From a virus, in the IMG/VR virus record IMGVR_UViG_3300037153_000221, positions 3,590 through 67,589 of that record: 64,000 nucleotides of DNA. The stretch is one strand, 5' to 3'. The notes under the pieces were generated by a model. That model searched no databases. It saw only the letters and a list, made by a program, of their open reading frames with translations, and was not told where the DNA came from. Shown piece after piece: positions 1-62,647 of this stretch (the stretch's first letter is position 1; every line of letters begins with the position of its first letter). The position numbers and the translations under genes are program-made.

Positions 1-1557
1 CTCGTCGTAGGCGACGACAGCATCCTGCGCGTCGGCTTCCGCAACCTGTACAAGATCGGCGGCCAGGAACGGTACCGCGCGGGCGCCACGGGCTTCACCG
101 GGGTCAAGCGTGTAAACCCCAACCCGCCCCGCTACCGGCGCGTCGGCTTCAACGCCGAGGCGTCCAGCGAACGTGACGGGCACCCGGCCAAGCTCGTGCT
201 GGACACCGGCAAGGACACACGCTGGACTTCGCACGATCACACCATCCCGAACTTCACCGAGTACGTCGAGATTCATCTGCCGCAGGCTCGCTACACGGGC
301 TTTCGCATCAACGTGCCGTCGCCGAACGTCACCATGTACATCTCCGTTTTCGCGCGTAACCGGCGCCGGAAGAAGAAGGGCGGCGGTTACGAGTACCGGC
401 CGTCGCAGATGGACGGAGTGGACATCCCCGAGGGCTTCATCAACATCCCGGAGTCACAGGGCGGCGGGCAGGTGCCGGGTGGTCACGGCGGTCATGCCTA
501 CATGCGCCGCATCGAGAACGTCGGCCCGCACCCGAAGGGTGTCCAGGAGGCGTTCAAGATCCACCCCGATGGCAAAGCGCTGGATCTAGGCTACAACTCC
601 GTTCTGCGCGTTAGCTTCCGCGAGCTACACCAGACCAGCCCCGGCACCTTCAGGGTCTCCGTGCGCACGCTGAAGGCCAACACCAAGAGCGGCGTGCCGC
701 AGCCGCCCAAGCCGCCGAAGGAACCCAAGCGCATCGAAGTCAACGACATCTCCGACATCGTGCGCGTGGTGCTGCGCTGGGCGGGCTTTGAGGAGTGGGA
801 GATCGAGAACACGGGCGCCAAGCTCAGCGGCGACTGGGTGTTCAACCGCCAGACCTTCTTCATCGACATCATCAAGAAGGTCCAGGAGGTGACGGGCTTC
901 GTGTTCTTCATGAAGCCACCGACGAACAACGACCGCTCCATCGGCGTGCCGGTGTTCCGTTCGTCCTGGCTGCTGCGTGATGACATCCCCGACTTGGCGC
1001 TTGTCACGCAGGACGATCTTCTGACTGGAGTTCAGGGAAAGATCACGGACGAACCGCTGGCGTCCATCATCTACGTGCGCGGCGCCCCCGATCAGAAGGG
1101 CAAGACCTACCTCGCCGACCGCACCAAGCGACTCCAGGCCAAGTACGTGCCGACCTGGTGGCGCAAGCACAACCGCCTCGGCGGCGTGCTGCGCCACGTC
1201 GTGCACACCGAGGACCGCCTGACCGACCAGAAGTCCGTGGACGTGTACGCGCGCCTGTGGGCGCTGCGGATGGCGCTGGAGGGCGCGACGGCGACTGCCG
1301 CCGTGCCCGGCACGCCCGAGTTCGACCTGGACGACCAGATCGGCCTGGCCGATAACATCGCGGGCCTGACCACGCGGCTGTACGTCGCCCAGCGAAACCT
1401 GGAGTTCACGACAGGCGAGAACGGCAGTTGGAAGCTAACGCTCGGCGGCGCGCTGCTGGACACGCCGGACATCGTGGAGACCAAGGCGGACCTTCGGGCG
1501 ATCCTGCCGCCGTCGCAGGCGCTCAGCTACATCGGCGACTACTACGAGATCAACTGA
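1..1557 (+). CDS. Minor tail / baseplate-hub-like structural protein (5' truncated by window edge)
   Basis: Frame is open from base 1 (LVVGDDSILRVGFRNL...) into ORF 196..1557; C-terminal 'ATAAVPGTPEFDLDDQI' resembles tail hub proteins; lies upstream of a tail fibre gene. Confidence 0.55.
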   Translation, partial: LVVGDDSILRVGFRNLYKIGGQERYRAGATGFTGVKRVNPNPPRYRRVGFNAEASSERDGHPAKLVLDTGKDTRWTSHDHTIPNFTEYVEIHLPQARYTGFRINVPSPNVTMYISVFARNRRRKKKGGGYEYRPSQMDGVDIPEGFINIPESQGGGQVPGGHGGHAYMRRIENVGPHPKGVQEAFKIHPDGKALDLGYNSVLRVSFRELHQTSPGTFRVSVRTLKANTKSGVPQPPKPPKEPKRIEVNDISDIVRVVLRWAGFEEWEIENTGAKLSGDWVFNRQTFFIDIIKKVQEVTGFVFFMKPPTNNDRSIGVPVFRSSWLLRDDIPDLALVTQDDLLTGVQGKITDEPLASIIYVRGAPDQKGKTYLADRTKRLQAKYVPTWWRKHNRLGGVLRHVVHTEDRLTDQKSVDVYARLWALRMALEGATATAAVPGTPEFDLDDQIGLADNIAGLTTRLYVAQRNLEFTTGENGSWKLTLGGALLDTPDIVETKADLRAILPPSQALSYIGDYYEIN

Positions 1558-2093
1558 TGCCCGCCTCGTCAACAGGTCTGCCCGTCGCCTACAGCGCGCA
1601 GGCCGTCGTGCGCAATATGACCATCGGTGCGATCACCTCCTACGACGCCCGCAAGAAGGAGGACTGGGAGCGTCAGATGGACGAGTACGACTGCCAGGTC
1701 AAGGTGCCGGTACAGGTGCCTGCGGTCGGCGCCGTCCCGGTCTGGCTGCCGTTCGAGGTGGGCTTCACGGTGTACTTCATCGCGCCACTGGACAACCCCA
1801 AGCGCGAGACACCGTACGACGACCCGATCTTCACATGGGGCTGCCGTCGTATCGGCAAGTTCCGCTTCTTCGTCATGGTCAACCTGCTGGAGTGGGTCGG
1901 TCATCCCGCGCCGGTCTCTCCCGACGACGACAGCAAGGGCATCACCGGGGCGAGGATGGAAGTCGGCATCATGCACCCCGCCGTGCATCCGGGCGAGGAC
2001 AAGAAGTACAACTGCGAACTGGAGTTGCACCTGAACTTCCAGGGATACGGCGGGGCGATCTCTGATCTCGATGGCGTGGAGGGCGAAAGCTGA
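1557..2093 (+). CDS. Hypothetical tail-module protein
   Basis: TGATG coupling at both ends; starts MPASSTG. Confidence 0.6.
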   Translation: MPASSTGLPVAYSAQAVVRNMTIGAITSYDARKKEDWERQMDEYDCQVKVPVQVPAVGAVPVWLPFEVGFTVYFIAPLDNPKRETPYDDPIFTWGCRRIGKFRFFVMVNLLEWVGHPAPVSPDDDSKGITGARMEVGIMHPAVHPGEDKKYNCELELHLNFQGYGGAISDLDGVEGES

Positions 2094-4549
2094 TGGACAA
2101 GACACCGCTTGGACTCACCAGGCTGGACCCGGCCGAGTCGCTGGCGACGGACGGCTACTCGTTCCAGGCGATCAACCCCATCATCATCGACCGCCTGCTG
2201 CGCGTCGGCGTCTACCTGCACAAGCACGATGCGCACGCGCGCCTCGGCGATCCACTGGACGAGCCGGAGATCACCACGGCCGCGACGGGCGGCCAGATCC
2301 CGTCCGACACGCTCGTGGCGACGTGCTACACGGTCGTGGACGAGTACGGCGGCGAGAGCCTGCCGTCCCCCATCGCCTCCGTGAGCACGGCGCCGGGGAT
2401 TGCGGAGCCGTTCGACGTGCCCGCGTACGAGATCGACAACACGCAGGGGAACCTGCGCAATGGCACCTACTACTACGTGCTGACGCTGACCGACGACACA
2501 GGCGGCGAGACCATCCCGTCCCCGCCTCTGCAAGTGGACATCCAACCTGGCAACGACCTGAACGCCGTCGTCTTCAGCGGCCTGACCGAGATCACCGAGA
2601 GTAGCGAAGGCGCGACCGGCTGGCGCATGTACAAGTCCACCGGCCAGTCTCGCTACCACTACATCGCAGACGGCCCGGCCGGTCTGGACTCCATCACCGA
2701 CGACGGCTTGCTGTGCGCCGACTGCCTGACCGAACCGCCGACCGAGGGCCACACCAACTCGACCAACAGCGTCACCGTCACCGTTCCGGACGCTGGCGTG
2801 CTCGCCGGGGCGAGTGCCTTCCGGATCTACCTGGGCGTGGACGGAGACTTCACCTCCCCCGCGCTGGCCGGGGAGTTCGACCCCGACCAGGTGAACGTCG
2901 CCATCGAGTTCCTTCAGGTCGCCGTGGACACCGGCACGCCGCCTGATGCCTCAACTACAGTCGCGGGCGCGCAGAAGATCAACCCCGACACGGACATCCT
3001 CAACTGGCCGTGGAAGGCGCCGGTCGCCACGACGGCCGATCTTCCCGACGACGCCGAAGAAGGCGACGTGCGCTTCGTGCTGGAGGACGCCACCATCTGG
3101 CTGTTCAAGGACACGTCCTGGATTCAGTACACGGCGCCGCCGCAGTTCTGGAAGGCACCCGTGACGAGCCTGGCCGAGCTTCCGACGACCGGGAATGTGC
3201 CCGGCGACGTGCGCGTCGTACTGGCCGACTTGAGTCTGTACATCTGGGACGTGGGCACCACGTCGTGGAAGCTGCTCTCTCCGCGTCCGGTGCCGGTCCA
3301 GGACGAGGGCGACGATCTTCCCGCGCGCGGCACCATCGACTTCCACGGCTCCGGCGTCACTGTCACCGACGACCCGGACAACAACAAGACCGTCGTCACG
3401 GTCAGCGGTGGGGGCGGGGGCGGCGGCGGGGGCGGTCCCTACACCATTGAGGGCGGCGAGGGGCCGAGCTACACATTCGATGACGCCGAGCAGGTGCGGC
3501 TGGCCGTGCGGCGCTACGAGGTGCCGCGCTTCTGGACCGCAGGGTTCCTTCCCCTGGAGCACGAAAATTACAGCCCCGCAGGCGCCTACCACCTCGTGGA
3601 CGGCGAGATGATCCCGCAGTCGGCCGGGACCGGCAGTCACTCCGTGATCCACGGAACGGGTGCCGCCCAGGTCAGGGATGGCTTCGGCCTGAGCATCATG
3701 GTGGACTACACGATCCTGTCTGACGACTGGGACGAGATCGGCCTGAAGGTCCGCGATGGACTCGATTTCGGCAACGGCGGGCCGACCATCACCATTGACA
3801 AGGCGGCGGGCACGATCACGCTGCACAACGGCGTGACTGACGTTCAGACGTTGGGCGCGGCCGAGGACTACGTGCTCCCCGAGATCGGCGAGACACGGCG
3901 TCTGACGTTGCGCGTAGAGAAGTACAGCGATGCTGACCCCTGGTACCTGACCGGCGTGGACCAAAGCCCGACCGACAACAGCGTGTACTGGCAGATGGAG
4001 GCTGATGTCAGCGCGACGTGGGGCGCGCACGAGCCGCACAGTGAGATCTACGCCACCTGGTCGGCTACGGGCGCACTCAAGTTCTTCAACTTCCGCCAGT
4101 GGACGCTCGTCATCAAGAGCATCCTCACGCTCCTTGTGCCTGACCCCGTGTCCGGCGATATCACGCATGAGTGGATGATCGTCGCGGAGGACGGTGGCTT
4201 CGGCATCAACGCAGGCTTCACGGTGTCGCCCGAGAACGACTGGACCGTGGACAACGTGTACGGCTATGCGGACGGCGGCATGTGCGTGATGGCCGGGACG
4301 CTGACGAGCGGGGCGTCGGCGGCGCCCGCGCCCGGCGACCTGATCGCCACGGTCTGGCCGACGCCGACGACCAACCTACTCCTCCAGGTCATCACGGGCG
4401 ACGACGACGGCCGCGAGTTCGGCGCGGTGTCCATCGACCTCAACGGCACCGTGCGATGGGAGATGGGTCGCTCCAGCGCTCCGGCGACTAAGCATCCGTA
4501 CGTCGTGCTGGATGGCGTGACGTATCCGATGAACAGGCCGAACTGGTAA
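2093..4549 (+). CDS. Tail fibre / receptor-binding-type structural protein, 818 aa
   Basis: Acidic, beta-rich; duplicated 'WKAPVxxxxxLP...GDVRxVL' motif; poly-Gly hinge; C-terminal fibre-like domain. Confidence 0.65.
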   Translation: MDKTPLGLTRLDPAESLATDGYSFQAINPIIIDRLLRVGVYLHKHDAHARLGDPLDEPEITTAATGGQIPSDTLVATCYTVVDEYGGESLPSPIASVSTAPGIAEPFDVPAYEIDNTQGNLRNGTYYYVLTLTDDTGGETIPSPPLQVDIQPGNDLNAVVFSGLTEITESSEGATGWRMYKSTGQSRYHYIADGPAGLDSITDDGLLCADCLTEPPTEGHTNSTNSVTVTVPDAGVLAGASAFRIYLGVDGDFTSPALAGEFDPDQVNVAIEFLQVAVDTGTPPDASTTVAGAQKINPDTDILNWPWKAPVATTADLPDDAEEGDVRFVLEDATIWLFKDTSWIQYTAPPQFWKAPVTSLAELPTTGNVPGDVRVVLADLSLYIWDVGTTSWKLLSPRPVPVQDEGDDLPARGTIDFHGSGVTVTDDPDNNKTVVTVSGGGGGGGGGGPYTIEGGEGPSYTFDDAEQVRLAVRRYEVPRFWTAGFLPLEHENYSPAGAYHLVDGEMIPQSAGTGSHSVIHGTGAAQVRDGFGLSIMVDYTILSDDWDEIGLKVRDGLDFGNGGPTITIDKAAGTITLHNGVTDVQTLGAAEDYVLPEIGETRRLTLRVEKYSDADPWYLTGVDQSPTDNSVYWQMEADVSATWGAHEPHSEIYATWSATGALKFFNFRQWTLVIKSILTLLVPDPVSGDITHEWMIVAEDGGFGINAGFTVSPENDWTVDNVYGYADGGMCVMAGTLTSGASAAPAPGDLIATVWPTPTTNLLLQVITGDDDGREFGAVSIDLNGTVRWEMGRSSAPATKHPYVVLDGVTYPMNRPNW

Positions 4550-5196
4550 TGCCTGGAACCGTACTTCAGTTCGACCCTAGCTGCTCCAACCGCCAGAAGG
4601 AGTGGTTTCAGGAGGCGATGCTGCGCTCGCACTTCCCGTTCGACCGGGCCGATCTGAAGTTGAGCGTCAAGGGTGTGGACGAGCCGCCGTGTCCTGGACA
4701 CAACGACTACATGTGCACCGAGACCTACCACGGCGGACCCGAGGGCACGTTCTCCATCATCTACATCCGCAACGGCGTCGAGGACCCCAACCACCCGGCC
4801 AATGCCGGGGTGCCGACCATCGAAGGACGCAAGCTGTTCTGGCTGGAGAGCGCCATCCACGAGGTGGGCCACGCCTTCACTCTCGGTCACCTCGCGGTGG
4901 ACGACCCGTCCACCGCGCACCTGTGCGAGATGTTCCAGTACCGCGACTCGCCGGGCACTCCGCGCTACGGCACACTCCCGGACTGGAGCGTCGGCGCCGA
5001 CACGAGCACGAGCCTGGACCCATGGCGCAACGCCATCTCCGAGGCCGTCGCCGAGTGGTTCAAGGATCTCTACCTCCCCGCCCAGTACCGCTGGTACAGC
5101 CAGCGCACGCTGTGGGACTTCAGACGGGAGTCCTTCACTAGCTGGTGGGATCTGCTCGAAGCGTTCATGTGTCCAGCCCCGAGCGACAGTTCCTGA
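4549..5196 (+). CDS. Zincin/metzincin-like zinc metallopeptidase
   Basis: AIHEVGHAFTLGH motif (HEXXH with a third His); TAATG-coupled to the fibre gene. Confidence 0.55.
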   Translation: MPGTVLQFDPSCSNRQKEWFQEAMLRSHFPFDRADLKLSVKGVDEPPCPGHNDYMCTETYHGGPEGTFSIIYIRNGVEDPNHPANAGVPTIEGRKLFWLESAIHEVGHAFTLGHLAVDDPSTAHLCEMFQYRDSPGTPRYGTLPDWSVGADTSTSLDPWRNAISEAVAEWFKDLYLPAQYRWYSQRTLWDFRRESFTSWWDLLEAFMCPAPSDSS

Positions 5197-5786: not shown

Positions 5787-5923
5787 CATCATGCTACGCT
5801 GCCGGACTTTCCCACGAGAGGAGGTGTTCCCACGGACCATGACTAAGCGCCGCGCTTGAGCGAAGTCAACGTAGCGAGCGGCGCGACTGGAACCGATGTG
5901 TCAACTCAAGTCAGGAGATCAAC

Positions 5924-6499
5924 TTGCGAATCGCAATCGCGGCGGCGCTCTCGACCGCCGCCCTCGCCTTCGTACTTCCATCCACCGCGTCCGCCGACAT
6001 GGCGGACTGCAAGCCGAAGCTGGAGCGCAACTACTCCAAGCATTACCGGCAGGTAGCACACAAGCACGGCACTCGTGCACCGGGGCGCAATATCCGCAGG
6101 CAAGGGGTCCTGTTCCGTCACGTCACCTTCAGAGCGACGTGCGGGGAGATCCGGCGCAGCGACCACCAGTTGAAGAAGCTGTTGGCGCGCCCGACGTTCG
6201 CTGAACTCACACGGCTGGCCGTGCCGCCGCCGCAACCACCGGCAGGCGTCCAGTCAACTACACAACGTGCCACGGGTGGTCCACTAGCCTCCATCCGCGC
6301 GTGCGAGTCCGGGGGCAACTACGCCACGAACACCGGCAACGGGTTCTACGGCGCCTACCAGTTCACCCTGGAGACCTGGCAAGCCATGGGTGGCAGTGGA
6401 CTGCCGTCCAACGCTAGCCCGGCCGAGCAGGACATGCGGGCCGCGAAGCTCTGGAACGGGGGAGCCGGAGCCGGTAACTGGCCCGTTTGCGGCCACTGA
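5924..6499 (+). CDS. rpf: Secreted resuscitation-promoting factor (Rpf-type lytic transglycosylase)
   Basis: Signal peptide ending ASA; Rpf core 'IRACESGGNYATNTGNGFYGAYQF...TW...GG...A...EQ...A...GAGNWPVC'; AGGAG RBS. Confidence 0.9.
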   Translation: MRIAIAAALSTAALAFVLPSTASADMADCKPKLERNYSKHYRQVAHKHGTRAPGRNIRRQGVLFRHVTFRATCGEIRRSDHQLKKLLARPTFAELTRLAVPPPQPPAGVQSTTQRATGGPLASIRACESGGNYATNTGNGFYGAYQFTLETWQAMGGSGLPSNASPAEQDMRAAKLWNGGAGAGNWPVCGH

Positions 6500-6718: not shown

Positions 6719-6795
6719 CCAGCGTTCCGTCCGCAGCGACGGATAGGGTGTGTAGCACGATGCCACACACGACTGGAGTTCGGAGGTAGCTAGAG

Positions 6796-7890
6796 ATGGC
6801 AGCGACGCAGGAGGGGCCGAAGCGCCTGGAGCCGCTTCGCTACGGAAGCCGGTGGCTGTACGCACCGCCGAGTGAGGAGGACGTGAAGACCTGGTTCGAC
6901 GGCCAGCGCCTGCATCCGGGGATGGCGCATGAGCCGTACTACGGCGGGATCGTGCTGATCGGCGCCAAGGAGAAGATCCAGCAGACGTTCGAGAACGCCA
7001 ACGGGACGCTGCTCCAGCGCGAGATCGAGCGCATGACGTTCACCCCATACGTCAAGGTGGACACGCGCATCGCCTACTTCCACGACCTGATCGCGGCGCT
7101 CAATGCGGAGGACCCGTTCAAGTACATCCCGGTCATCGAGCCGGTGCCGGTGAAGATCATCACCGACCGCAACTCGCCGTACTACAACGAGCACTTGCCC
7201 GAGGGCTACTTCATGTTCCCGGTGCGCAACAACACCGAACGGGAGTCCTTCAATCGCTACATCGGCGCGCGCTGGCGGGTCGCCATCTACGAGGCCGACC
7301 AGTACATGAACGCCATCGCGGGCAAGGAGCCGCGTCCACTGATCCAGGGCGTCGGCACCAAGCAGTCGCTCCTGGTGAAGCAGTACGCCGACGACAACGT
7401 GCTGATGAAGGCCGAGACCGGCGCCATCGGGCGCGCGCTAGGCGTGGCGGGCATCCTCGTGGTCGGCACTGGCATCGCCACGGCCGAGGACATGCAGGAG
7501 TTCCAGAGCGCGCCGCCGCCCGGTCAGGCAGCCGGGGACATCACGCCGCTGCCCGAGATCGTCGCTCCGTCCGAGCCGCAGGCGGGCGTGCGCCAGGAAG
7601 GCCCGGAGGCCGAGGGCCAGGTGAACATGCCCGGCGTCAACGACCAGGGCGCGGTGGTCCCGGACGAGTCCACGCCGCAGGAGCGTGACGAGGAGATGCG
7701 CGCACGGGCGCGCACGCTTTCGGACGAACTGAAGTCTGTATCTCCGGCTGCGCACGCCGCCTACGTCGAGTGGTACACCAAGGAGCGCCAGTTCCCGGCG
7801 CTCGACCAACTCAGCGGCCCGGCGCTCAACGGCGCCGTCGTGGCGCTGGAGCGCAAGCTGGACGAGGCGCGGCAGGCGAGCACGGCATGA
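6796..7890 (+). CDS. Single-strand annealing protein (Rad52/Sak-like recombinase)
   Basis: 'YVKVDTRIAYF' and 'KAETGAIGRAL...GI...IATAEDM' motifs; next to an exonuclease gene; GGAGG RBS. Confidence 0.65.
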   Translation: MAATQEGPKRLEPLRYGSRWLYAPPSEEDVKTWFDGQRLHPGMAHEPYYGGIVLIGAKEKIQQTFENANGTLLQREIERMTFTPYVKVDTRIAYFHDLIAALNAEDPFKYIPVIEPVPVKIITDRNSPYYNEHLPEGYFMFPVRNNTERESFNRYIGARWRVAIYEADQYMNAIAGKEPRPLIQGVGTKQSLLVKQYADDNVLMKAETGAIGRALGVAGILVVGTGIATAEDMQEFQSAPPPGQAAGDITPLPEIVAPSEPQAGVRQEGPEAEGQVNMPGVNDQGAVVPDESTPQERDEEMRARARTLSDELKSVSPAAHAAYVEWYTKERQFPALDQLSGPALNGAVVALERKLDEARQASTA

Positions 7891-8426
7891 GCGAGTTCGA
7901 CGGGAGCGTGACCGTCTTCTACGACGACACGCCGACCACCGTCAACAAGGGCGGTGGCGGCTCGCGCGGGCACTGGTCCAAGGGCCACAAGGAGAAGCAG
8001 CGCTGGGAAGGCGTCTATCTCGCGCTATTCCTCCAGGCCAAGCTGCCGAGGCGCCTGGACTTCGTGCGCGTCCACATCCTGCTGGAGTATGCGAGGCCGA
8101 ACACCAAGCGCGATCCGGAGAACTTCCGTCACCCTGTAGTGAAGCCGCTGGCCGACGCCTTCGTGAAGGCGGGCTACCTCAAGGACGACAACCCCGACTA
8201 CTTCGATGTCGGCAGCCTGACCATCAGCCGCGACAAGCTGGACGCTCCGAAAACCATCAAGTCGCGGATCACCGTCACCATCGACTACAGGTTGGCCAGC
8301 GCCGACCCGGAGCCGTATGGTCTGGCGGCCCCGGCACCGGGCGGCGCGGCAGGCGCAACGGGCCGGGACGTGGGGGATGATGCTCACGCCCGGCGAACGC
8401 CCACGCGCCAGCCTACTAGGAGGTGA
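7887..8426 (+). CDS. RusA-like Holliday junction resolvase
   Basis: 'RDPEN...KPLADAFVKAGYLKDD' matches the RusA catalytic pattern; ATGA overlap with the SSAP gene. Confidence 0.7.
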   Translation: MSEFDGSVTVFYDDTPTTVNKGGGGSRGHWSKGHKEKQRWEGVYLALFLQAKLPRRLDFVRVHILLEYARPNTKRDPENFRHPVVKPLADAFVKAGYLKDDNPDYFDVGSLTISRDKLDAPKTIKSRITVTIDYRLASADPEPYGLAAPAPGGAAGATGRDVGDDAHARRTPTRQPTRR

Positions 8427-13311: not shown

Positions 13312-13326
13312 AGGAGTGAACTGAAG

Positions 13327-14106: not shown

Positions 14107-14163
14107 GGCCCAACCGAAGTCCAGTGCTAGCGCCGGGGGACCAGTGCCCCCGGCGCACCGCCG

Positions 14164-21368: not shown

Positions 21369-21381
21369 CTCTCGTTAGCGG

Positions 21382-45041: not shown

Positions 45042-45072
45042 CCTCGGACGACAGTTGGGGTAGAAGTCTCTG

Positions 45073-51744: not shown

Positions 51745-51803
51745 GATTGGACGATAGTTTTGGGATCTGACCGGGTATGGTGTAGCATGGAGAGACACCG
51801 CAC

Positions 51804-54040: not shown

Positions 54041-54483
54041 ACGGCTCACAATGCAACTGGCACCTGGACAGCCTGGACGTTCCGGAGGCGAGTGATCCCA
54101 TGGCCGAGATCGCCGAACTGAAGTCCAACGCCAAGGTCATCGACCTGTCCGGCGACCGCGCCGAACTGACGGCGCGCTTCAACAAGACGATGGAGAAGGA
54201 AGCGGGCTACTCGTACTACTCGAACCTGGAGTGCCACCTGAAGTGGACGCAGCCGGGTCCGAAGTACGCGAACGACCGCAACCCCTGCTACGACTGCCCG
54301 TACTACACCGAGGACCACTTCAACGAAGCGCGCGCCCTGCTGTGCGCCCTCGGCCGCGAGCAGAACGACCTCCTGGACGCGATGTACGCGCTGGACGCGC
54401 TCGCGGCGCTCGACGCCGAGCTAGCGCGCGTACACGACGCCGAGATCGGCGCGTCCGTCGAACTCGCCGCCGCCCTGCTGTAA
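54037..54483 (+). CDS. Hypothetical Cys-containing protein
   Basis: GTGA-coupled. Confidence 0.5.
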   Translation: MNGSQCNWHLDSLDVPEASDPMAEIAELKSNAKVIDLSGDRAELTARFNKTMEKEAGYSYYSNLECHLKWTQPGPKYANDRNPCYDCPYYTEDHFNEARALLCALGREQNDLLDAMYALDALAALDAELARVHDAEIGASVELAAALL

Positions 54484-54492: not shown

Positions 54493-54948
54493 GTGTCGGA
54501 CCCCAAGCCCTTCACCTCGCACAAGGCGGCGACCGTCTTCCTGCGCGTGCCGCACACCGACTGGGCGGCGATCAAGCGCGGCTCGAAGACGGAGTTCCGC
54601 ACGCACGGCCTGGGATATCCGGCGCTGTTCAACGTCAAGACGCCAACTGCCGTCGTGGCCTACGTGATGCGCGGCAAGCCGCCGCGCTACGAGCACTGCA
54701 TGTTGGTGCTGGAGGAGACCTTCAGGGAGCCGCTGGGCGCCATCTCGCCCGAATCGCTGGCGCGCGAGGGCTTCCCGGACATCGCGCACTTCCGGCGCTA
54801 CTGGATGGGCCGCACCAAGCTGCGCTTCCGGCCGCTGTCGGAGGTGCAGGCGTATCGTGTGCGACCATACCGACAGGGCGACACCGCGATGCTGGGTCTC
54901 GTCCTGATGGAGCGCCTGTACGGGGACTACTTCAATGGAAAGCGCTGA
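54493..54948 (+). CDS. ASCH/PUA-like domain protein
   Basis: 'AIKRGSKTEFR...I..E...REGF...F..YW'. Confidence 0.7.
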   Translation: MSDPKPFTSHKAATVFLRVPHTDWAAIKRGSKTEFRTHGLGYPALFNVKTPTAVVAYVMRGKPPRYEHCMLVLEETFREPLGAISPESLAREGFPDIAHFRRYWMGRTKLRFRPLSEVQAYRVRPYRQGDTAMLGLVLMERLYGDYFNGKR

Positions 54949-55466: not shown

Positions 55467-55892
55467 GTGTCCGGACCCAGCCAGACCGTCTACACCACCA
55501 TGAGCACTCCGATCATCGCCAACAAGGCCAGCTTCCACGAGGAGGCGCGCTACCAGATGTGCTGCGCCGTCTGCGGCACGACCAAGGGCTTCAACGCGCA
55601 CCACGTCCTCTACGCGCAGATCCTGGAGCGCGAGTATGGGCTGACTGGAAACGCGCTGTACGACACGCGCAACGCGCTGCGGATCTGCACCGAGAACGGC
55701 AACAACTGCCACTCGCGCCACCACCACGCCGTCCGCAAGATCATGACCGTCGAACTGACGGACGAGAACGTCGCGTACGTGTTCGAGGTGATGGGCCTGT
55801 ACGGCGCCGACTGGCTTCGCCGGTACTACGACGACGACGTGCAGGACAGCCGGATCGTCAAACTGGAGTCCGAACTTAGGGTGGCGGCATGA
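55467..55892 (+). CDS. HNH endonuclease (terminase-associated)
   Basis: CAVCG...HH...N...C....CH..HH; upstream of the terminase genes. Confidence 0.75.
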   Translation: MSGPSQTVYTTMSTPIIANKASFHEEARYQMCCAVCGTTKGFNAHHVLYAQILEREYGLTGNALYDTRNALRICTENGNNCHSRHHHAVRKIMTVELTDENVAYVFEVMGLYGADWLRRYYDDDVQDSRIVKLESELRVAA

Positions 55893-56004: not shown

Positions 56005-56676
56005 GTGAGCGCGCTCCTGCCGCCCACGCCGTTCAACAACTTCGAGGTGGAGATGCCTGCGGGCGGGAAGATGTACCTCCAGTCCGACGAGGAGGTGGAG
56101 TTGTGGGACAAGACGATGGAGCGGTACATGGACGACTACCACCTCACGAACATCAACGACCTACACCTCCTGGGCGCGATCCTCCAGCAGCAAGTCCTGC
56201 TGTTCCGCTCGCAGCGGATGCTCAACGGCATGGAGGCCGAGCTAGACAACGCAGGCGTGCCGACCGGCCGCTACATCCAGCACAAGCTCGACGCCGAGCA
56301 GACGGTCGCGGCGCAGAAGCTCATGAACACGGCCACCACCCAGATCACGTCGCTGGAGCGCACGCTGGGCTTGACAAAGGAGCAGCGAGAGGCTGGCGGA
56401 CAGGTGTCGGTGCCGAACTACATTCGGACGCTAAAGCGCGCGGCGCACGCGCGGGGCATCCACATCTCGAAGCGTGTAATCGCGTATGAGAAGTTCGTCC
56501 AGGACTTCTCGTGGCGGCTGCGTGTCCTCCAGAACGCCGACGCGGAGGACCGGGCATACCATGACCTCTCCCCGGAGAAGCTGTGCGACTGGGCGCGGGA
56601 TCAGATCGCGGAGCTAGCCGAGGTGGACAGGAAGTTCGCGCGTGAGATCGGTGCGCTCTACGTTGGAAAGCTCTGA
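56005..56676 (+). CDS. Terminase small subunit (probable)
   Basis: Helical; 'LGLT..QR'; positioned between HNH and TerL. Confidence 0.55.
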   Translation: MSALLPPTPFNNFEVEMPAGGKMYLQSDEEVELWDKTMERYMDDYHLTNINDLHLLGAILQQQVLLFRSQRMLNGMEAELDNAGVPTGRYIQHKLDAEQTVAAQKLMNTATTQITSLERTLGLTKEQREAGGQVSVPNYIRTLKRAAHARGIHISKRVIAYEKFVQDFSWRLRVLQNADAEDRAYHDLSPEKLCDWARDQIAELAEVDRKFAREIGALYVGKL

Positions 56677-56924
56677 GAAGGCCGATCTGTACCTGGTCCT
56701 ATGGCGAGCCTGGGGTATCAACAGTTTCGCAGCGAGCAACATGTTCGCTCGCGGGCAAGTGTCCATCGACGGCTTCGTCGTGCCGCATCCGTGGGCGCGC
56801 AACCACTGGACCAAGCAGCAGTTGTACGGCCGGATGCTGACGTGTATGCGCGGACAGGTGAGGCTGTACGGATCGGCCATCGACCGGACGTGCGTAGTGG
56901 TCAACGAGCAACTGGAGTTACGCC

Positions 56925-57134: not shown

Positions 57135-57513
57135 GCTGTGCGAGTGCGGCTGTGGACGGCCGACAAAGCCCGCAACGCAGACTCGGCGCCGCGACGGCGT
57201 GGTCAAGGGCGAGCCGCAGCGCTTTGTGAAGGGTCACGCCCGTCGCGTTGGACGGCCCCCGGTTCGACGTGGCGACGGCTGCCTGATCTGGCAGGGCAGG
57301 CCATCAGCACAGGGTTATGGACGGACTGTAGTTGACGGCAAGACCATCCCGGCGCATGTCGCGGTATGGGTGGAGGCGAACGGTCCGGTTCCCGAGGACC
57401 ACGAGATCGACCACACCTGTTTCGAGCGCATGTGTGTAGAGTTGACGCATCTGGAGTGTGTGACGCGAGCGGAGAACCGCAGGCGTGCAGCGCTGAGGAG
57501 ATGGCATGGCTAA
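57127..57513 (+). CDS. HNH homing endonuclease-like protein
   Basis: 'CECGCG' N-terminus; 'CLIWQG...GYG...AH...IDH.C..R.CV...HLE.VT..EN'. Confidence 0.85.
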   Translation: MAKLCECGCGRPTKPATQTRRRDGVVKGEPQRFVKGHARRVGRPPVRRGDGCLIWQGRPSAQGYGRTVVDGKTIPAHVAVWVEANGPVPEDHEIDHTCFERMCVELTHLECVTRAENRRRAALRRWHG

Positions 57514-59308
57514 GGGCGAACTGGGGTTCATCGACGGCCAGCACAACGTCGAGATGACGGACGGCGTGTGGCGCTTTGACGATGACGACTGGGCCTTGAT
57601 CGCCATGCTCATGGACCCGATCCACTGCGCAGAGCTTCTGTTCGAGGACCCGAAGAATCGAGACCAGGGTGGGTGCTACAGGGTCTGGGATTACCAATAC
57701 GGCTTGTTCCGCCGCACCGACAACTACGAGGGCTACCCGTGCGCTCGTACAGTGGGCAAGACGGAGAGCATGAAGGCCGACGCGGTGTCTCACGTCTTCC
57801 GGCGCCAGGGCGAGGGGATGCTGATAACGGCGCCGGAGTTGATCCACCTGATGCCGCTGTGCGACGCCATCGAGGAGCGCATCCGTGACACGCGCCTGAC
57901 GCGCGACTTCCTGGACACCCGCAACCAGAAGACCGGCTTCAACCACCGGCCCTTCCAGGCCGACTTCCTGGACGGCACCAAGATCATCGGGCGCATCCCC
58001 AAGCTCACGGGCACGGGCGTCAAGGGCCAGCACGTTCCCGACCTACGCATCGAGGAGGGCCAGGACTACCCGGAGAAGGGCTGGATCGAAGTCCACGAGA
58101 CCGTGATGAAGGACCATGTGGACGGCGACGGCGAGGGCGACTTCACGTACATCTTCTACGGCGTGCACTCCGGCGCGCGCGACGGGCGCTTCTACCGGCT
58201 GTCCACGTCCGGCGAGTTCAGGATCTCCACGATCACCGCCGTGATGCGGCCGGGCTGGGGTCCAGACGAGAAGGCGCGGGCGGCGGCCATCTACGGCGGA
58301 ACTCAAGCTCCGGACTACCGGCGCAACATCCTGGGCGAAGCCGGGGGAGCGTCGTCGGCGTTCTTCGTCACCGCGCGCCTGATGGCCTGCTTGGACCAGG
58401 ACCGCGAGAGCGACTACAACACCGTCCACTGGAAGCGCCAGGCGCTGATGGCCGAGGAGATCGACCGGATGATCGGCGACCTGTCCGGCGTGCCGAAGGA
58501 GCAGCACACGGAGATCATGTACGACACGCTCAAGACGCTCGTGGACCTTCCCGAGCTACCGAACGTGCAGCAGATCTACCTCGGTGGCGACATCGGCCTC
58601 GTCAACGACCCGACCGTGCTGACGCTGTGGGCGGTCCAGCCGGACACCAAGAAGCGCTCGCGCATCCGGCTCGTGCGCATGTTCCACCTCTGGCGCTTCC
58701 GCGAGAAGATGATCCGCCAGTTGCTGTACATCATCGGCTGGCGCTACGGGCAGCGTCTGCGGGGCGCGGGCATCGACGTGACGGGGCTGGGCCTGCCGAT
58801 CTTCCAGGCCATCGAGGACGACGAGGCGGCGCCGCAGCACCTCGTGGACGTGACGCGCGGCTACGTCTTCAACGCCAAGGTGCCCATCGGCGTGGACAAG
58901 AGCCTCGTCACGCAGGACTCGCAGGGGCGCCTGCGCGACCATCTCGGCAACATGGTGGAGAAGCTGGAGGACCCGTTCACGCGCGAGGAGCGCTACGTCG
59001 TCAAGATGACGATGATCGAAGCCTCGACGCGCTACTTGCGAGAGTTCGTGGACGCGATGTACCTCCAACTGCCGTTCGATCCTGAGATCGCAGGGGACTT
59101 CCAGGGCGAGACCGAGCAGCGCGTGAAGGCCATGGCGGGCGTCCGGAAGAAGCCCAACGCCTTCCACATCCTGGACTCGGCACGCGCCTTCGCCATGGTG
59201 TTCAAGGCGGCCGACGTGGAGGCGCAGACCAAGGTGACCGCACAGCAGCCGGTGCTCGCGCGCGCCGTGGACGTGCGCGGGTCGGCGTCAATGGCTGGAG
59301 TGACATGA
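57506..59308 (+). CDS. terL: Terminase large subunit
   Basis: Walker A 'ARTVGKT'; Walker B-like 'IEE'; RNase H-fold 'GGDIG..NDPT', 'IDVTGLG', 'HILDS'. Confidence 0.85.
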   Translation: MAKGELGFIDGQHNVEMTDGVWRFDDDDWALIAMLMDPIHCAELLFEDPKNRDQGGCYRVWDYQYGLFRRTDNYEGYPCARTVGKTESMKADAVSHVFRRQGEGMLITAPELIHLMPLCDAIEERIRDTRLTRDFLDTRNQKTGFNHRPFQADFLDGTKIIGRIPKLTGTGVKGQHVPDLRIEEGQDYPEKGWIEVHETVMKDHVDGDGEGDFTYIFYGVHSGARDGRFYRLSTSGEFRISTITAVMRPGWGPDEKARAAAIYGGTQAPDYRRNILGEAGGASSAFFVTARLMACLDQDRESDYNTVHWKRQALMAEEIDRMIGDLSGVPKEQHTEIMYDTLKTLVDLPELPNVQQIYLGGDIGLVNDPTVLTLWAVQPDTKKRSRIRLVRMFHLWRFREKMIRQLLYIIGWRYGQRLRGAGIDVTGLGLPIFQAIEDDEAAPQHLVDVTRGYVFNAKVPIGVDKSLVTQDSQGRLRDHLGNMVEKLEDPFTREERYVVKMTMIEASTRYLREFVDAMYLQLPFDPEIAGDFQGETEQRVKAMAGVRKKPNAFHILDSARAFAMVFKAADVEAQTKVTAQQPVLARAVDVRGSASMAGVT

Positions 59309-59890
59309 GCAAGATACTGGTCCAGCAGCGTCCGGGCGGCCCTGTCCGCTTGGCGACGCGCGAGGAGAAGTGCCAGCACATCTGGGTGCCCAAGCAGGCG
59401 TGGAGCGGCGGCAGGCAGCACCACTACTGCATCAACTGCCCGGCCACCTGCGTCGGCGATCCGGTGGCTCTGGGGCGCACCAGTGGAACTCGCAGAGATT
59501 AGGCGCCGACTGGAGTCCGCGCTTCCTCTGCGCATCCCGCAGTTCGACCCCAACACTCCACCGCGCGAGAAGATCAGCAAGCTGGAGGACTACATCCTGA
59601 CGTGCGCCTACCATCGCGGCGAATTGGAGGAGGCGCTGCACTGGTGCCTCGAAGCCGGGAAGAAGCTGCGCGCCCAGTGGGATGACATACAGGGCTACGA
59701 GGTGGGCCTGCCGACGCGGCCGACCAAAGAGCAGATCGACCTGTCCAAACGTCACGTCGCGCCGCAGATCTGGGCCGGACTGGACGAGGCCCGCACCCTG
59801 ACCGAGAGCATAAAGAGGCAGATTTCTCGCTTGGGCGGGAGCGACTACGACGCCGCCAGTCGCGCTTACACCATGCTCAGCGGGTCTTAG
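59305..59890 (+). CDS. Two small genes (59305..59502 Cys/His; 59483..59890)
   Basis: Coupled ORFs between terL and the portal gene. Confidence 0.5.
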
Positions 59891-59927
59891 GCGCCCAATC
59901 TCAGGGCTTGAGTCGTAGATTAGGGCT

Positions 59928-62204
59928 ATGCCCGAGGCCCAGGAATCCCCCGGCGCGCTCAAGGGTCGCCCTGGACCCGACAACGCGATCATCGACAACC
60001 GGACCGGCCTGCCGGACAACGTGGTCCGCGAGGCCGTCATGTCCTACTGGGTGGAGAGCGCCGCGTTGCAGTTCGGGACGCCGACGAACTTCCAGCTTTA
60101 CAGCACCAACCAGGGGTCCAACATGCTGGCGCGGTCTCCCTTCGAGACCCCGAGCAACGTCCTGGACGAGATCAGGCTGGCGCGCCAGGTGGCCGAGTGC
60201 GACGACGACGTGCGCGCCGTCATCGACCAGATGGTCCACACCGCCTACCGCGACGGCATGGAGAACCACCACCCGGACCTGACGACACTTCACGTCTTCA
60301 ACGAGATCGCCAAGCAGATGAACCTGGATCTCGCGCTCAAGGAGTTGCTGCGCGAGTACCTGATCGCGGCACAGGTGGTCACGCTGTCGCTGTTCACGCG
60401 GTCGCGGATCACGTTCGCCCCAACCGACAACGAGAGTCGGACCGTAACCGCGCAGATGTCCACGCCGCTCCTCGGCGTGCTCCCGGCCGAAGACATCCGC
60501 GTGCTGTCCAACGACGTGTTCGACACGGGCGACCTGGGCTATGAGGTGACAGACCAGGCGCTCAAGGAGTGGCTGGAGGAATACTTCGCGGAGACCACTA
60601 GCCCGGCGAAGAAGGAGGCGATGCGGCGCGAGCAGCCCGTCGTCGCCGCCATCTTCACCGAGAAGATCGAGGTGGACTGGAACGATCAGGACAAGTTCAT
60701 CGCGGGCAAGACGATCTACAGGCTCAACCCGCGCATGGTCCACCGCACCACGATGCCGAAGGGGTCCACCGCCTACCCGCGCCCCCGTCTGACCGCCAAC
60801 TTCGCGCTCCTGGAGGCTAAGCGCCTCCTGAACATCATGGACTACGCGCTTCTCCAGGGCGGCACGAACTACATCGTGGTGGCGAAGGTCGGCTCCGACA
60901 ACCTCCCGGCGCAGCAGCCCGAGGTGGACAACCTGACCGACCAGGTGCGCCACGCCTCCCGTACCGGCGTGCTCGTGGGCGACCACCGCATCACCATCGA
61001 CATCATCACGCCGGACCTGGGCGAGCTACTGAACCCGGCCAAGCGCAAGCTCCTGGGCCGCAAGATCGCCATGGCGATGCTGTCCATACCCGAGCAGGTG
61101 ACTCCAGATCCGGGCAACGAGGGCGCTAGGTCCGAAATGGAGTTCGCCGCTAACACGATCCAGTCCGACCGGCACGACATCCAGCGCCACGTCGAGCGCT
61201 ACGTGTACGACGAGATCACGCGGCGCAACCCGTCCAGTCCGATCAAGTCCTCGCCGTCACTCTGGCACGCCAGGGTCATACTCAGCGGCGTCAAGGAGTT
61301 CTACGACAGCGTGATAAAGGCGCGCGACCGAGGCGACATCCCGCGCAAGTGGGCAGTGGAGGTGCTGGGGTTCCCGTACGAGGCGGGTGTAGCACAGCGC
61401 CAGCGCGAGCTTGACGAGGGACATGACGAGATCATGACGCCAGGGTCGGTGCCCTTCTCGGCCAATGATGGCACACCGCCCGTGGACAACGCCGGGGGCC
61501 GTCCGGTCGGCTCCTCGCCCGACAACGGCCGTCCAGGGGCCAGGCGAGCGGGCGAGACCGCGCCGAGCCGGACCATGCAGCGGCGCCGGGGCGAGAACAT
61601 CCGGGCGCACTGGGACCAGGCGAACGCCGCCACCGTGCGCATCGGCGAGTTGACGGCGGCCGTGGTCGAGGAGTACCCGGAGCACACGGTCGGCCGCGTC
61701 ACGTCCATCGAGCGCGAGGCCGTCGAGGCGGGCGAGACCCGCCAGCACGGGCCGGTGTGCGTGGTGCCCGTCAACCCGGCCTACGACGTGGGCGAGCTAC
61801 GCGCCTTCAGGCTCCAGGAGGGCCTGTCCATGATCGTCGGCCAGCGCGTGCAGGACGACGCCATCGTCGCCAAGGCGCTGTGCTTCCGCGAACCCCAGTT
61901 CACGCTTAGCCAGGCCGAGGAGATGGCGCTGCGGTGGGGCTTTGTCACGTCCACCGTCGTCGCGGAGGAGGAGCGCGAGGAGGAGCAGACGCTGACGGCC
62001 GGGCAGATGTTCATGCGCGCCATCCAGGACCCGGCGATGCTCGCCGCCTTCACCGGGGTGGTCGGCGAGATCGTCGCCAAGATCCAGCCGCAGGTGACCA
62101 TCGTCATGCCGGACGAGGCCGACCGCGAGATCATCCGCGACGAGGAGACCGGCGCGATCATCGGCACCCGCGTCATCCCGCGCGTCACCGGAGGTGGCTC
62201 GTGA
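59928..62204 (+). CDS. Portal protein with a long C-terminal extension
   Basis: Position after terL; size; helical core. Confidence 0.7.
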   Translation: MPEAQESPGALKGRPGPDNAIIDNRTGLPDNVVREAVMSYWVESAALQFGTPTNFQLYSTNQGSNMLARSPFETPSNVLDEIRLARQVAECDDDVRAVIDQMVHTAYRDGMENHHPDLTTLHVFNEIAKQMNLDLALKELLREYLIAAQVVTLSLFTRSRITFAPTDNESRTVTAQMSTPLLGVLPAEDIRVLSNDVFDTGDLGYEVTDQALKEWLEEYFAETTSPAKKEAMRREQPVVAAIFTEKIEVDWNDQDKFIAGKTIYRLNPRMVHRTTMPKGSTAYPRPRLTANFALLEAKRLLNIMDYALLQGGTNYIVVAKVGSDNLPAQQPEVDNLTDQVRHASRTGVLVGDHRITIDIITPDLGELLNPAKRKLLGRKIAMAMLSIPEQVTPDPGNEGARSEMEFAANTIQSDRHDIQRHVERYVYDEITRRNPSSPIKSSPSLWHARVILSGVKEFYDSVIKARDRGDIPRKWAVEVLGFPYEAGVAQRQRELDEGHDEIMTPGSVPFSANDGTPPVDNAGGRPVGSSPDNGRPGARRAGETAPSRTMQRRRGENIRAHWDQANAATVRIGELTAAVVEEYPEHTVGRVTSIEREAVEAGETRQHGPVCVVPVNPAYDVGELRAFRLQEGLSMIVGQRVQDDAIVAKALCFREPQFTLSQAEEMALRWGFVTSTVVAEEEREEEQTLTAGQMFMRAIQDPAMLAAFTGVVGEIVAKIQPQVTIVMPDEADREIIRDEETGAIIGTRVIPRVTGGGS

Positions 62205-62647
62205 TCGGCACCTTCACCACCCGGACCTACGCCACCCGCGCCGACTGGATCGCGCGACGGGAGTCCGGCGTTTACGTCGCGCGCAACGCCTTCACGACCG
62301 TGGGCATGACCTGGATGTGGCGCCGGATGGTCGGCATGGTCCCCGACACGCTCGCCGAGGCCGAGATCGTCGTCGGTGACGGCCTGAGCGGCTTTGTGGG
62401 CACCGAGGAGGCGCTGACCGGCGAGAACCAGGACCGTGCCGGTCTGACCGTGCCGCCCGAGATCGTCGGCTCGCGGATCGTGCTGCGCTCCACCTTCACC
62501 GAACGCCAAGCGAACTTCGACTGGATGGAGCGCGGGATCGTCGTGCCGTCCGGCGTGCTGATCGACCGCTCCGTGGCAGACCAGGGCCGCAAGGTCTTCG
62601 GCGCGGTCTGGGATGTTGAGGCCGAACTGGAGTTGGTCGGTGGTTGA
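62201..62647 (+). CDS. Structural protein resembling a tail-fibre/baseplate attachment domain
   Basis: 'N..TTVG...VGDG...STF....ANFDW.E.GI'. Confidence 0.55.
   Translation: MIGTFTTRTYATRADWIARRESGVYVARNAFTTVGMTWMWRRMVGMVPDTLAEAEIVVGDGLSGFVGTEEALTGENQDRAGLTVPPEIVGSRIVLRSTFTERQANFDWMERGIVVPSGVLIDRSVADQGRKVFGAVWDVEAELELVGG

Follow-up and report, generated by a model that had tools for sequence, protein, structure and literature searches.

The stretch of DNA considered here, a window of 64,000 nucleotides, carries the palindromic word RACTNNAGTY 50 times, where 100 dinucleotide-preserving shuffles give 1.68 (standard deviation 1.19, largest 5), and these exact copies belong to a larger family of two-fold symmetric sites, about one per 530 bp, which are spaced more evenly than random placement would have them. 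The window comprises bases 3590-67589 of a linear 67,589-bp IMG/VR record (IMGVR_UViG_3300037153_000221, here G000, judged 77% complete), which we read as an uncultured temperate phage. In what follows, a strict site is an exact match to RACTNNAGTY and a variant site is any other match to a position matrix built from the family. An earlier reading made from the letters alone (the sequence-only reading) had listed 49 copies and put the chance expectation at about one or two: all 49 starts are exact matches, one more copy (at 51055) had been overlooked, and the expectation agrees with the shuffles. The family of palindromes that it proposed is real, although the strict form makes up less than half of it. 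The G+C content, given there as about 68%, is 0.66 by measurement.

In the whole record the word occurs 52 times and a backwards control pattern twice, while ACTNNAGT occurs 54 times, 52 of these having the R...Y flanks. A gene call by simple codon statistics gave 109 genes, which occupy 87% of the record in three blocks (ordered rightward, leftward, rightward) and leave 13% intergenic; 17 of the 52 strict sites are intergenic and 35 lie within called genes. Might the genic copies simply reflect the proteins encoded? Shuffling of synonymous codons leaves a mean of 2.81 copies (maximum 8), and shuffling of codon order a mean of 0.61 (maximum 4; 300 shuffles in each case), so that the codon-preserving comparison, proposed in the sequence-only reading as a check, bore out its proposal. 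One frame, xRA-CTN-NAG-TYx, holds 26 of the 35 genic strict sites, in peptides of the ELES, ELEL and ELKS type. There are 29 places where the peptide could encode the word in this frame, and the word is present in 26 of them, against 1.38 expected from codon usage; thus, codon choice and peptide sequence have both been bent to hold it. A codon or peptide artefact is rejected by the shuffles, and a compositional artefact is excluded.

The word is the centre of a fuller motif, a dyad of 26-30 bp (TA-N6-RACT-NN-AGTY-N6-TA) in which only about 12-14 positions are conserved and the dyad contacts reach out to 12-13 bp on each side. In 75 of 104 half-sites the base 12 bp from the centre is an A, with T or G often just before it; positions 6-8 carry almost no information (0.06-0.13 bits), and at position 5 G is as frequent as A. 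Symmetry had been thought often to extend outward from the word, but it does so beyond chance solely at this conserved A/T. A symmetrised 30-bp matrix, refined and trained on the record that it scores, finds 129, 122 and 117 sites in the record at 10, 11 and 12 bits (codon-order shuffles: 3.6, 1.8 and 1.2), and at 10.5 bits 125-127 sites, as against 3.0 in codon-order shuffles, with 122 of them within the window. The contrast with the shuffles does not depend on the threshold, unlike the exact number of sites.

The two halves of the site are not independent. Among one-mismatch variants, only the change of the inner T to G is enriched (47 against 9.7), and these RACG/RACT sites retain the flank signature (34/47 and 29/47), as do the RACC/RACT (13) and RACA/RACT (5) sites, while RACG/RACG sites (8) are at background level both in number and in flank. 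A degenerate half is therefore tolerated only beside an intact RACT half, which fits a cooperative dimer on double-stranded DNA. Flank complementarity at positions 6-20 shows no excess over chance, and hairpins and cruciforms are thus ruled out; likewise, the asymmetric variants have no orientation bias with respect to transcription (18 against 16 on the coding strand), and an RNA-level signal is therefore rejected. Two more familiar kinds of element can also be set aside. In a promoter of the extracytoplasmic function (ECF) type, with its consensus spacing, the A/T element, some 13 nt from AAC, would be too close for a -35/-10 pair; and mobile miniature repeats (like repetitive extragenic palindromes or miniature inverted-repeat transposable elements) do not accord with about 12-14 conserved positions, 92 of 127 sites being genic, and flanks that lack complementarity.

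The centre dinucleotide, which had been described as varying freely, is never CG, GC, AT or TA (0 of 54 ACTNNAGT), and favours GG and GA when read on the coding strand (CTG-GAG, CTG-AAG). A centre that must be non-palindromic might have hinted at crossover by a serine-recombinase-like enzyme, but the explanation lies elsewhere: the record has no copy of CTCGAG or CTGCAG, although about 23-28 and 18-23, respectively, would be expected, and restriction-site avoidance accounts for the missing centres. Variant cores that do not create these hexamers do have palindromic centres (GC in 9 of 47, CG in 3 of 47), and a relative with 72 copies of CTCGAG, G003, carries GACTCGAGTC sites. Among the 13 relatives introduced below, CTGCAG occurs 0-2 times in 11 and CTCGAG 0-1 times in 11, the exceptions being G003 (72 CTCGAG), G412 (44 CTGCAG) and G005 (81 CTCGAG and 35 CTGCAG); the pattern has the look of a host-dependent avoidance of restriction sites.

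The spacing of the sites is as distinctive as their number. Counted by gene block, there is one site per 513, 508 and 587 bp, and the gaps between neighbours (mean 533 bp, median 469) have a coefficient of variation (CV) of 0.50, compared with 0.99 for random placement (none of 2000 trials was as low). Gaps shorter than 200 bp number 7 of 124, against 38.8 expected from an exponential distribution, and gaps of more than 2.5 times the mean number 2, against 10.2. When sites were redrawn within their own gene or intergenic segment, the CV was 0.68, and none of 1000 trials was as low as 0.50. Matrix sites are mostly genic (92 of 127), with an approximately two-fold enrichment in intergenic regions and at gene ends; 25 sites lie within 30 bp of gene starts, against 12.2 expected. 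We read this boundary enrichment as placement where the coding cost is lowest.

In window coordinates, without strand and with matrix scores in bits, the strict sites are 1023-1032 (20.0), 2017-2026 (19.6), 2953-2962 (13.6), 3227-3236 (16.4), 5903-5912 (20.3; 12 nt upstream of the start of the Rpf-like transglycosylase gene), 6771-6780 (17.6; 16 nt ahead of a gene start), 7727-7736 (16.0), 8788-8797 (17.7), 10460-10469 (19.6), 13319-13328 (15.8; at a gene junction), 14506-14515 (22.6), 14717-14726 (14.4), 15157-15166 (16.9), 17695-17704 (17.1), 18491-18500 (26.4, the top score, with both TA flanks), 19935-19944 (19.0; overlapping the stop codon of a helix-turn-helix gene), 23240-23249 (16.1; at a start codon), 23489-23498 (11.0), 24399-24408 (14.6), 24871-24880 (18.4), 25140-25149 (14.4), 26053-26062 (20.4), 27185-27194 (20.4), 27627-27636 (19.7), 28832-28841 (13.9; 23 nt upstream of the DUF6744 gene), 29976-29985 (19.2), 32007-32016 (23.1), 33406-33415 (20.3), 34793-34802 (13.5; 5 nt ahead of a gene start), 35764-35773 (22.8; 82 nt upstream of the gene that starts at 35850), 36388-36397 (16.5), 36955-36964 (17.0), 37347-37356 (19.2), 37676-37685 (17.0), 39945-39954 (22.8; both TA flanks), 42487-42496 (14.5), 43156-43165 (17.7), 43510-43519 (19.3), 43877-43886 (16.7), 44266-44275 (16.3), 46773-46782 (20.2), 48743-48752 (21.3), 51055-51064 (13.2; the copy overlooked earlier), 53919-53928 (12.8), 54116-54125 (20.9), 55861-55870 (23.8), 56910-56919 (18.0; 6 nt ahead of a gene start), 57324-57333 (19.8), 59508-59517 (17.9) and 62625-62634 (20.1).

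The variant sites, scored likewise, are 1420-1429 (18.3), 3835-3844 (14.2), 4562-4571 (15.2), 6399-6408 (15.7), 7238-7247 (16.3), 9469-9478 (15.5), 9665-9674 (14.9), 9912-9921 (19.3), 10931-10940 (14.0), 11943-11952 (15.0), 12515-12524 (21.7; within the DnaB-like gene, the orthologous G003 position also being a site), 12914-12923 (18.7), 14112-14121 (19.5), 15773-15782 (14.4; 45 nt upstream of the sigma-factor gene), 16192-16201 (16.7), 16338-16347 (17.6), 16692-16701 (13.8), 17089-17098 (15.4), 17221-17230 (13.5), 18031-18040 (14.4), 18728-18737 (12.0), 19181-19190 (18.0), 20550-20559 (17.4), 21000-21009 (17.9), 21367-21376 (20.1), 21992-22001 (15.8), 22660-22669 (17.2), 23812-23821 (20.5), 26384-26393 (13.4), 26880-26889 (12.9), 28070-28079 (12.9; the orthologous G002 position also a site), 29556-29565 (15.8), 30610-30619 (13.3), 31607-31616 (17.7), 32640-32649 (17.8), 33787-33796 (16.5), 34253-34262 (17.4), 38119-38128 (14.0), 38533-38542 (14.8), 39217-39226 (18.7), 40939-40948 (17.8), 41347-41356 (17.2), 42821-42830 (16.6), 45047-45056 (16.6), 47201-47210 (14.2), 47727-47736 (17.1), 48176-48185 (15.8), 49264-49273 (17.0), 49991-50000 (16.3), 50418-50427 (21.2), 51252-51261 (15.8), 51750-51759 (16.2), 52222-52231 (16.0), 52752-52761 (12.3), 52890-52899 (15.4), 54645-54654 (13.5; the orthologous G001 and G002 positions also sites), 56416-56425 (12.0), 57519-57528 (15.8), 58300-58309 (13.5), 59067-59076 (16.7), 59905-59914 (13.9), 60429-60438 (16.7), 61135-61144 (21.0), 61891-61900 (13.7) and 62256-62265 (17.5). 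Weaker variants lie at 4074-4083 (10.5), 5123-5132 (11.8), 11363-11372 (11.1), 15377-15386 (10.7), 15411-15420 (11.5), 35401-35410 (10.8; within the repeat array of the switch region discussed below) and 56075-56084 (10.6).

Viral-contig searches with the terminase and an alignment of the RuvB-like protein yielded 13 long related viral records, six of which have the motif (seven of 14 records if G000 is included). The relationship is distant: G000 aligns to G001-G004 over only 4-9 kb at about 67-69% nucleotide identity, with shared proteins 25-58% identical. Strict and control counts are 52 and 2 for G000, 43 and 2 for G003, 42 and 3 for G414, 27 and 1 for G002, 15 and 4 for G001, 14 and 0 for G004, and 12 and 0 for G413; in the other records they are 1 and 3 (G409), 1 and 4 (G410), 2 and 2 (G411), 1 and 3 (G412), 0 and 3 (G415), 5 and 6 (G416), and 0 and 1 (G005). 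No other dense dyad or 8-mer was found in the motif-free relatives. Matrices refined for G003, G414, G002, G001 and G004 find 157, 96, 101, 56 and 58 sites, respectively (0-4 in reversed-sequence controls), with gap CVs of 0.80, 0.79, 0.49, 0.69 and 0.51; over-even spacing thus recurs in G002, G004, G001 and G003. Mean spacing among the relatives ranges 2.6-fold, from 525 to 1401 bp, and a fixed physical period of about 420 bp is ruled out by it. Throughout, the core is constant and the flank varies, being TTAC(G) in G001, G002 and G004, TA in G000, AAnTT in G003 and ATGnC in G414. In a terminase tree (neighbour-joining on identities, without resampling support), the strongly motif-bearing records form one clade with the motif-free G415 nested inside it, and G413 and G416 are a pair, with the motif weak or absent, outside that clade. 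Taken together, this is the signature of selection acting on coverage of the whole chromosome, positions being free to move; and because the array is dense and even in spite of the rare codons and altered peptides that it entails, a coverage role is indicated rather than the control of particular genes.

How does this array compare with dispersed sites already described? The stoperators of Cluster A mycobacteriophages, the published mechanism that comes closest, number more than twenty in L5 and 26 in TipsytheTRex, lie in promoters and between and within genes, exert their effect genome-wide, and are asymmetric 13-mers, bound by a monomer, whose orientation follows transcription (PMC9283540). 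As in those phages, one short word is present in many copies over a temperate genome (125-127 here, with an integrase present). Unlike stoperators, the G000 word is a dyad with half-site compensation and no orientation bias (18 against 16), and the array is some four times denser, mostly genic (92 of 127) and evenly spaced. There is also a likeness to the 17-bp dyad repeat of Cluster O mycobacteriophages, TGTTCGGNNNCCGAACA, which has a variable centre, is present in 31-34 copies per genome of about 70 kb, with about a third in coding regions, and has no explained function (PMC4351075; PMC6439249); the sites are described as invariant and concentrated at one genome end, in phages without integrase (PMC4351075). 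The G000 motif shares with it a dyad with variable centre and more than 30 copies in coding and non-coding DNA, but its sites are degenerate, uniformly distributed and three to four times denser, and belong to an uncultured temperate lineage; TGTTCGGNNNCCGAACA itself has no match in G000 even with two mismatches allowed. The suggestion of the sequence-only reading that the system was undescribed therefore holds for the word, its density and its even spacing, none of which was found in literature searches, and not for dispersed dyad repeats as such, given those known in Cluster O (PMC4351075).

Among temperate actinophages, a palindromic operator with well over a dozen copies genome-wide is provided by the conserved inverted repeats (CIRs) of the phiC31 repressor. 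The CIRs are far fewer than the sites of the present array and are mostly intergenic and in the early region. The LexA box of the SOS response in Gram-positive bacteria has the core GAAC-N4-GTTC, with which the word had been said to overlap. In fact, only four window sites fit that core, compared with 122 motif sites, G equalling A at position 5, and LexA is rejected as the reader on that count. Chi and DNA uptake sequences are genome-wide signals of a host chromosome, in which they are enriched, and consist of asymmetric words read on one strand; like them, the array is of the order of one per kb, is kept by selection in genes and turns over in position, but unlike them its word is a dyad of about 28 bp, unenriched in sampled bacterial genomes.

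The inner part of the motif has a counterpart in DosR (DevR), whose consensus oligonucleotide contains GACT-AA-AGTC (...GGGACT-AA-AGTCCC...; PMC5999986, Table 1). DosR reads GGGACT through its recognition helix as a dimer of LuxR/NarL-type helix-turn-helix (HTH) domains on inverted half-sites 2 bp apart (PMC13486717). The ACT/AGT core and the 2-bp spacing are thus shared with G000, but the outer GGG/CCC is not conserved there (0.06-0.13 bits at positions 6-8), the phage motif has an extra A/T contact 12 bp out, and more than a hundred phage sites do not make a promoter regulon. The likeness is therefore one of geometry, not of membership, and suits LuxR/NarL-type HTH dimers by analogy.

What might such an array do? 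Tentatively, and without giving it quite an even chance, we favour the view that it is a palindromic, orientation-independent analogue of the stoperators, a dimer occupying the genome-wide array and silencing the phage. One two-fold symmetric, sequence-specific protein would bind double-stranded DNA at all of the sites, each monomer reading RACT beside the dyad and making a second, weaker contact with the A/T step (TA here, TTAC in relatives) 11-14 bp out, for a footprint of about 26-30 bp. Selection would keep the array dense (about one site per 0.5 kb) and even, the price being rare codons and altered peptides. The repressor-like protein would block both the initiation and the elongation of transcription across the three oppositely transcribed blocks, and silencing would include the promoters of the phage's own sigma-factor genes. 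Palindromic sites would work in either orientation, which suits a genome with three opposed transcription blocks. From the behaviour of the sequences (half-site compensation, lack of orientation bias and of hairpins, uniform and over-even distribution) we infer protein binding, a dimeric state and silencing; the same behaviour upholds the idea of a dimeric genome-wide reader put forward in the sequence-only reading, although the two HTH proteins that it named for the role fare badly, as described below.

The stoperator-like reading is also favoured by conserved sites ahead of sigma genes. An ECF-type sigma-70 family gene at 15822-16421 (+ strand; Pfam Sigma70_r2, 1.9e-07; NCBIfam sigma70-ECF, 1.9e-10) is conserved in 12 of the 13 relatives (undetected in G005), and in all five motif-bearing genomes compared there is a site 36-133 nt upstream of it. 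Similarly, a site lies 60-82 nt upstream of the orthologue of the 35850-36827 gene in all three genomes compared (G000, G001 and G002), with four clustered there in G001. These conserved sites look regulatory. The ECF-type sigma factor, together with the sigma-like protein of 35850-36827, suggests a transcription cascade run by the phage.

Several observations tell against genome-wide silencing by a phage repressor. Six related temperate records do without the motif. When genic sites of G000 were compared with orthologues, 5 of 123 comparisons had a site within 6 bp, against 1.9 expected, and since positions are unconserved no single site is demonstrably needed. Enrichment within 30 bp of gene stops (25 sites, 12.3 expected) equals that at gene starts, and so fits 'cheap places' as well as it fits regulation. 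The number of sites rises to 146 at 7 bits, depending as it does on a threshold applied to a matrix trained on the same genome. A divergent intergenic region at 35291-35660 has three 39-nt repeats and three inverted 52-nt repeats that share TGGAGACACGGAG, of which there are six copies (five exact, one with a single mismatch) and none elsewhere in the window. Probably these repeats serve a genetic switch as its operators, promoters or origin; since this 3+3 array looks like the usual operator set, the genome-wide word may not be the immunity operator. Finally, among the 14 records there is no gene family that every motif-bearing one has and every motif-free one lacks, and the family of the best phage candidate for the reader (19943-20728) is undetected in the motif-rich G003 and in G413, yet is found in the motif-free G410 and G415.

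That candidate, encoded at 19943-20728 (- strand), had been proposed as an HTH reader and has a three-helix N-terminal HTH resembling GerE or sigma region 4, followed by a basic low-complexity stretch, a coiled coil and an acidic tail. Its Pfam matches (GerE, HTH_23, GcrA) are sub-threshold, the coiled-coil segment is conserved, members occur in G001, G002, G004 and G414, and the gene adjoins the integrase in G001 and G002; with the distribution just given, the family does not track the motif. Sub-threshold GerE matches are found in this family and in sigma region 4, with none in G003 and some in motif-free records. The second protein proposed, that of 35850-36827 (+ strand), has no Pfam or PHROG match and had homologues only in G001, G002 and G415, and the proposal is not supported; sigma-factor-like proteins are its nearest neighbours by Atlas features, which is no more than a lead, and with the conserved site upstream it is more likely a sigma-like regulator, itself a target rather than the reader. 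An ArsR-type winged-helix protein (43284-43613) is discarded as reader, being found only in G000 with no homologue in the relatives. No ParB family turned up in Pfam and PHROG scans of the proteins examined, no search aimed at ParB having been made.

The best phyletic correlate of the motif is a trio of genes at 27826-31978 (- strand) for a RavA-like MoxR ATPase, a ViaA-like VWA protein and a DUF6744 protein, present in all seven motif-bearing records and in two of the seven motif-free ones (nine of 14 in all). It is rejected as reader, since its distribution follows phylogeny and it has no DNA-binding annotation, PADLOC hit or PDB relative. In metagenomes, DUF6744 has 175 homologues or more, many of them encoded on contigs of about 80-90 kb, where proteins of 67-79% identity occur; PDB and PADLOC gave neither a relative nor a hit, and a literature search returned nothing on it. 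PADLOC likewise gave no hit for the trio as a whole or for the HTH proteins. The gene for the reader may belong to the phage or to its host.

Might the array serve the DNA itself rather than its transcription? The same sites could nucleate a protein coat or bridge that compacts, protects or self-marks phage DNA, for example by halting a nuclease or translocase that tracks along it, and the even spacing would then set a bound on the longest unprotected stretch; we think this unlikely. Short and long gaps are both in deficit in four of five genomes, and the evenness of spacing inside long genes is better explained in this way than by silencing; early and late blocks are equally dense, density is kept while positions turn over, and gene starts are not preferred to gene ends. 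Moreover, the word is essentially absent from the bacterial genomes sampled, so that it could tell phage from host DNA, and the strong avoidance of CTCGAG and CTGCAG shows that the phage is under nuclease pressure. Against this, no coat protein or nuclease partner was found, PADLOC being silent on the trio and the HTH proteins alike; mean spacing differs 2.6-fold among relatives (525-1401 bp), and there is therefore no fixed physical period; and close relatives lack the motif.

It is rather improbable, to our mind, that the reader is a host protein and that phages of one host group have gathered its word in order to exploit or titrate it as a decoy, the flank differences among phages then reflecting orthologous host proteins. 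This would agree with the failure of any phage gene family to track the motif, with the motif-free G415 lying inside the motif-bearing clade of the large terminase, with G003 differing both in restriction-site avoidance (72 CTCGAG) and in flank signature, and with the core being the inner core of an actinobacterial LuxR-type box (PMC5999986). The presence of the motif also tracks G+C content (0.645-0.672 in motif-bearing records, 0.615-0.637 in motif-free relatives), which keeps a host-encoded reader in play. The genomes searched do not support it. Prophage relatives were found at three loci in a species collection, one of them a terminase fragment in a real chromosome, the 4.8-Mb actinomycete G006, and at none in 400 further genomes of the class of G006. 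G006, used as a candidate host-like genome for the comparison of host density proposed in the sequence-only reading, has 21 strict copies and 36 of the control. The extended word, of which there are two copies in the 64-kb window (the same density in a 3-Mb genome would give about 90), is present in at most two copies in each of 401 genomes sampled from the phylum of G006. Among the genomes searched, then, the word is not a chromosome-wide host signal. The DosR-box outer GGG and the LexA core, moreover, are not what is conserved at the phage sites, only four of those in the window fitting the latter.

A still weaker case can be made that what acts on the word is no passive binder but a sequence-specific enzyme, such as a nickase, a recombinase or an enzyme that modifies DNA, in which case the word might mark DNA or help diverged relatives to exchange it wherever they have short sites in common; we regard this as improbable. 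A short dyad with a 2-bp centre is typical for enzymes, sites are two-fold enriched at gene boundaries, the word is common to phages that align over only 4-9 kb, and the phage encodes an exonuclease, a RuvB-like helicase and a tyrosine integrase. Yet the sole methyltransferase-like gene (22005-23057), discarded for this reason, matches spermine-synthase and generic methyltransferase models rather than DNA methylases and is poorly conserved in the relatives; enzyme targets tend to be neutral or avoided, not evenly spaced and in 30-fold excess; an enzyme that cut both strands 2 bp apart would break up the genome; and the 12-bp contact and half-site compensation suit a binding dimer better. It is scarcely credible that the excess has no function and simply follows from codon usage, mutation bias or the frequency of peptides such as Glu-Leu-Glu: the single frame of 26 of the 35 genic strict sites, their ELES-type peptides and the GG or GA centre on the coding strand lean that way, but shuffles keeping protein and codon usage (2.81) or codon content (0.61) fall far below 35, 17 of 52 strict sites lie in the 13% of the record that is intergenic, conservation of the A/T flank 12 bp out does not depend on the core, and there are only two copies of the backwards control pattern.

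As to the phage itself, family scans of its proteins found a tyrosine integrase, a DnaB-like helicase, a DnaD-like loader, an exonuclease, a RuvB-like helicase, the RavA-like, ViaA-like and DUF6744 proteins, the ECF-type sigma factor, a DprA-like protein, endolysin domains, collagen-like tail fibres and an Rpf-like transglycosylase. From the Rpf-like domain and the base composition, the host is probably a high-GC Gram-positive bacterium. The first 20 kb, used as a query, had no DNA match in the cultured-phage collection, and at the protein level neither 19943-20728 nor 35850-36827 had one, the sole match being the large terminase, a protein of 600 amino acids (57506-59308) with 30.8% identity to the annotated terminase of MK557849. 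A recombination set, all four members of which are conserved across the motif-bearing relatives, comprises a RuvB-like helicase (NCBIfam, 2e-50), a 364-residue protein, a basic 179-residue protein and an exonuclease, at 23520-24653 (-), 6796-7890 (+), 7887-8426 (+) and 8433-9638 (+). The 364-residue protein, named as a single-strand annealing protein in the sequence-only reading, is conserved and has no family match, and the 179-residue protein sits between it and the exonuclease. The product of 55467-55892 (+), 1.6 kb upstream of the large terminase gene, has by eye the Cys/His pattern typical of HNH endonucleases.

We also draw attention to some further sequence features. A gene for 481 amino acids (45263-46708, +), with no assigned function, occupies a motif-free stretch of 1.7 kb, and its homologue among the first five relatives, in G003 only (43% identity), likewise lies between strict sites 3.4 kb apart; the gene may be a recent acquisition not yet 'ameliorated'. 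The hexamer AGATCT occurs 34 times in the record, against 6.1 expected from base composition alone, a figure that is not codon-aware. G003 has a second over-represented dyad, CCGGnnnnnCCGG, with 54 copies (9.4 expected from half-site counts), and CGCCGGCG is over-represented in the motif-free G409 (50 against 8.5) and G412 (41 against 7.5), where its spacing is not notably even (CV 0.78-0.82).

At its most general, the finding may amount to a 'coverage code', an idea that we hold possible but doubtful: a clade of uncultured temperate phages would keep more than a hundred near-regular dyads, read by a factor that organises, shields or self-marks the chromosome (in effect a sequence-programmed phage chromatin), selection acting on spacing and not on position, while the flanks have diversified (TTAC, AAnTT, ATGnC). 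As far as the literature searches reach, the word, its half-site grammar, its density, its over-even spacing and the clade are new, dispersed dyad repeats being already known; nor did those searches find an earlier description in phages of selection on whole-chromosome coverage. Among dispersed repeats of actinophages, a mechanism is known for the stoperators alone; the dyad repeat of Cluster O has gone without explanation since 2015. The present array places three measurable constraints on any mechanism, namely half-site compensation, about one site per 0.5 kb, and over-even spacing in five divergent genomes without positional conservation, and its patchy distribution among close relatives, as with the motif-free G415 within the motif-bearing clade, provides natural controls. 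The reader protein, if found, would offer a new model for genome-wide prophage silencing or protection, as well as a DNA-binding module, compact and orthogonal, whose sites follow a well-defined grammar.

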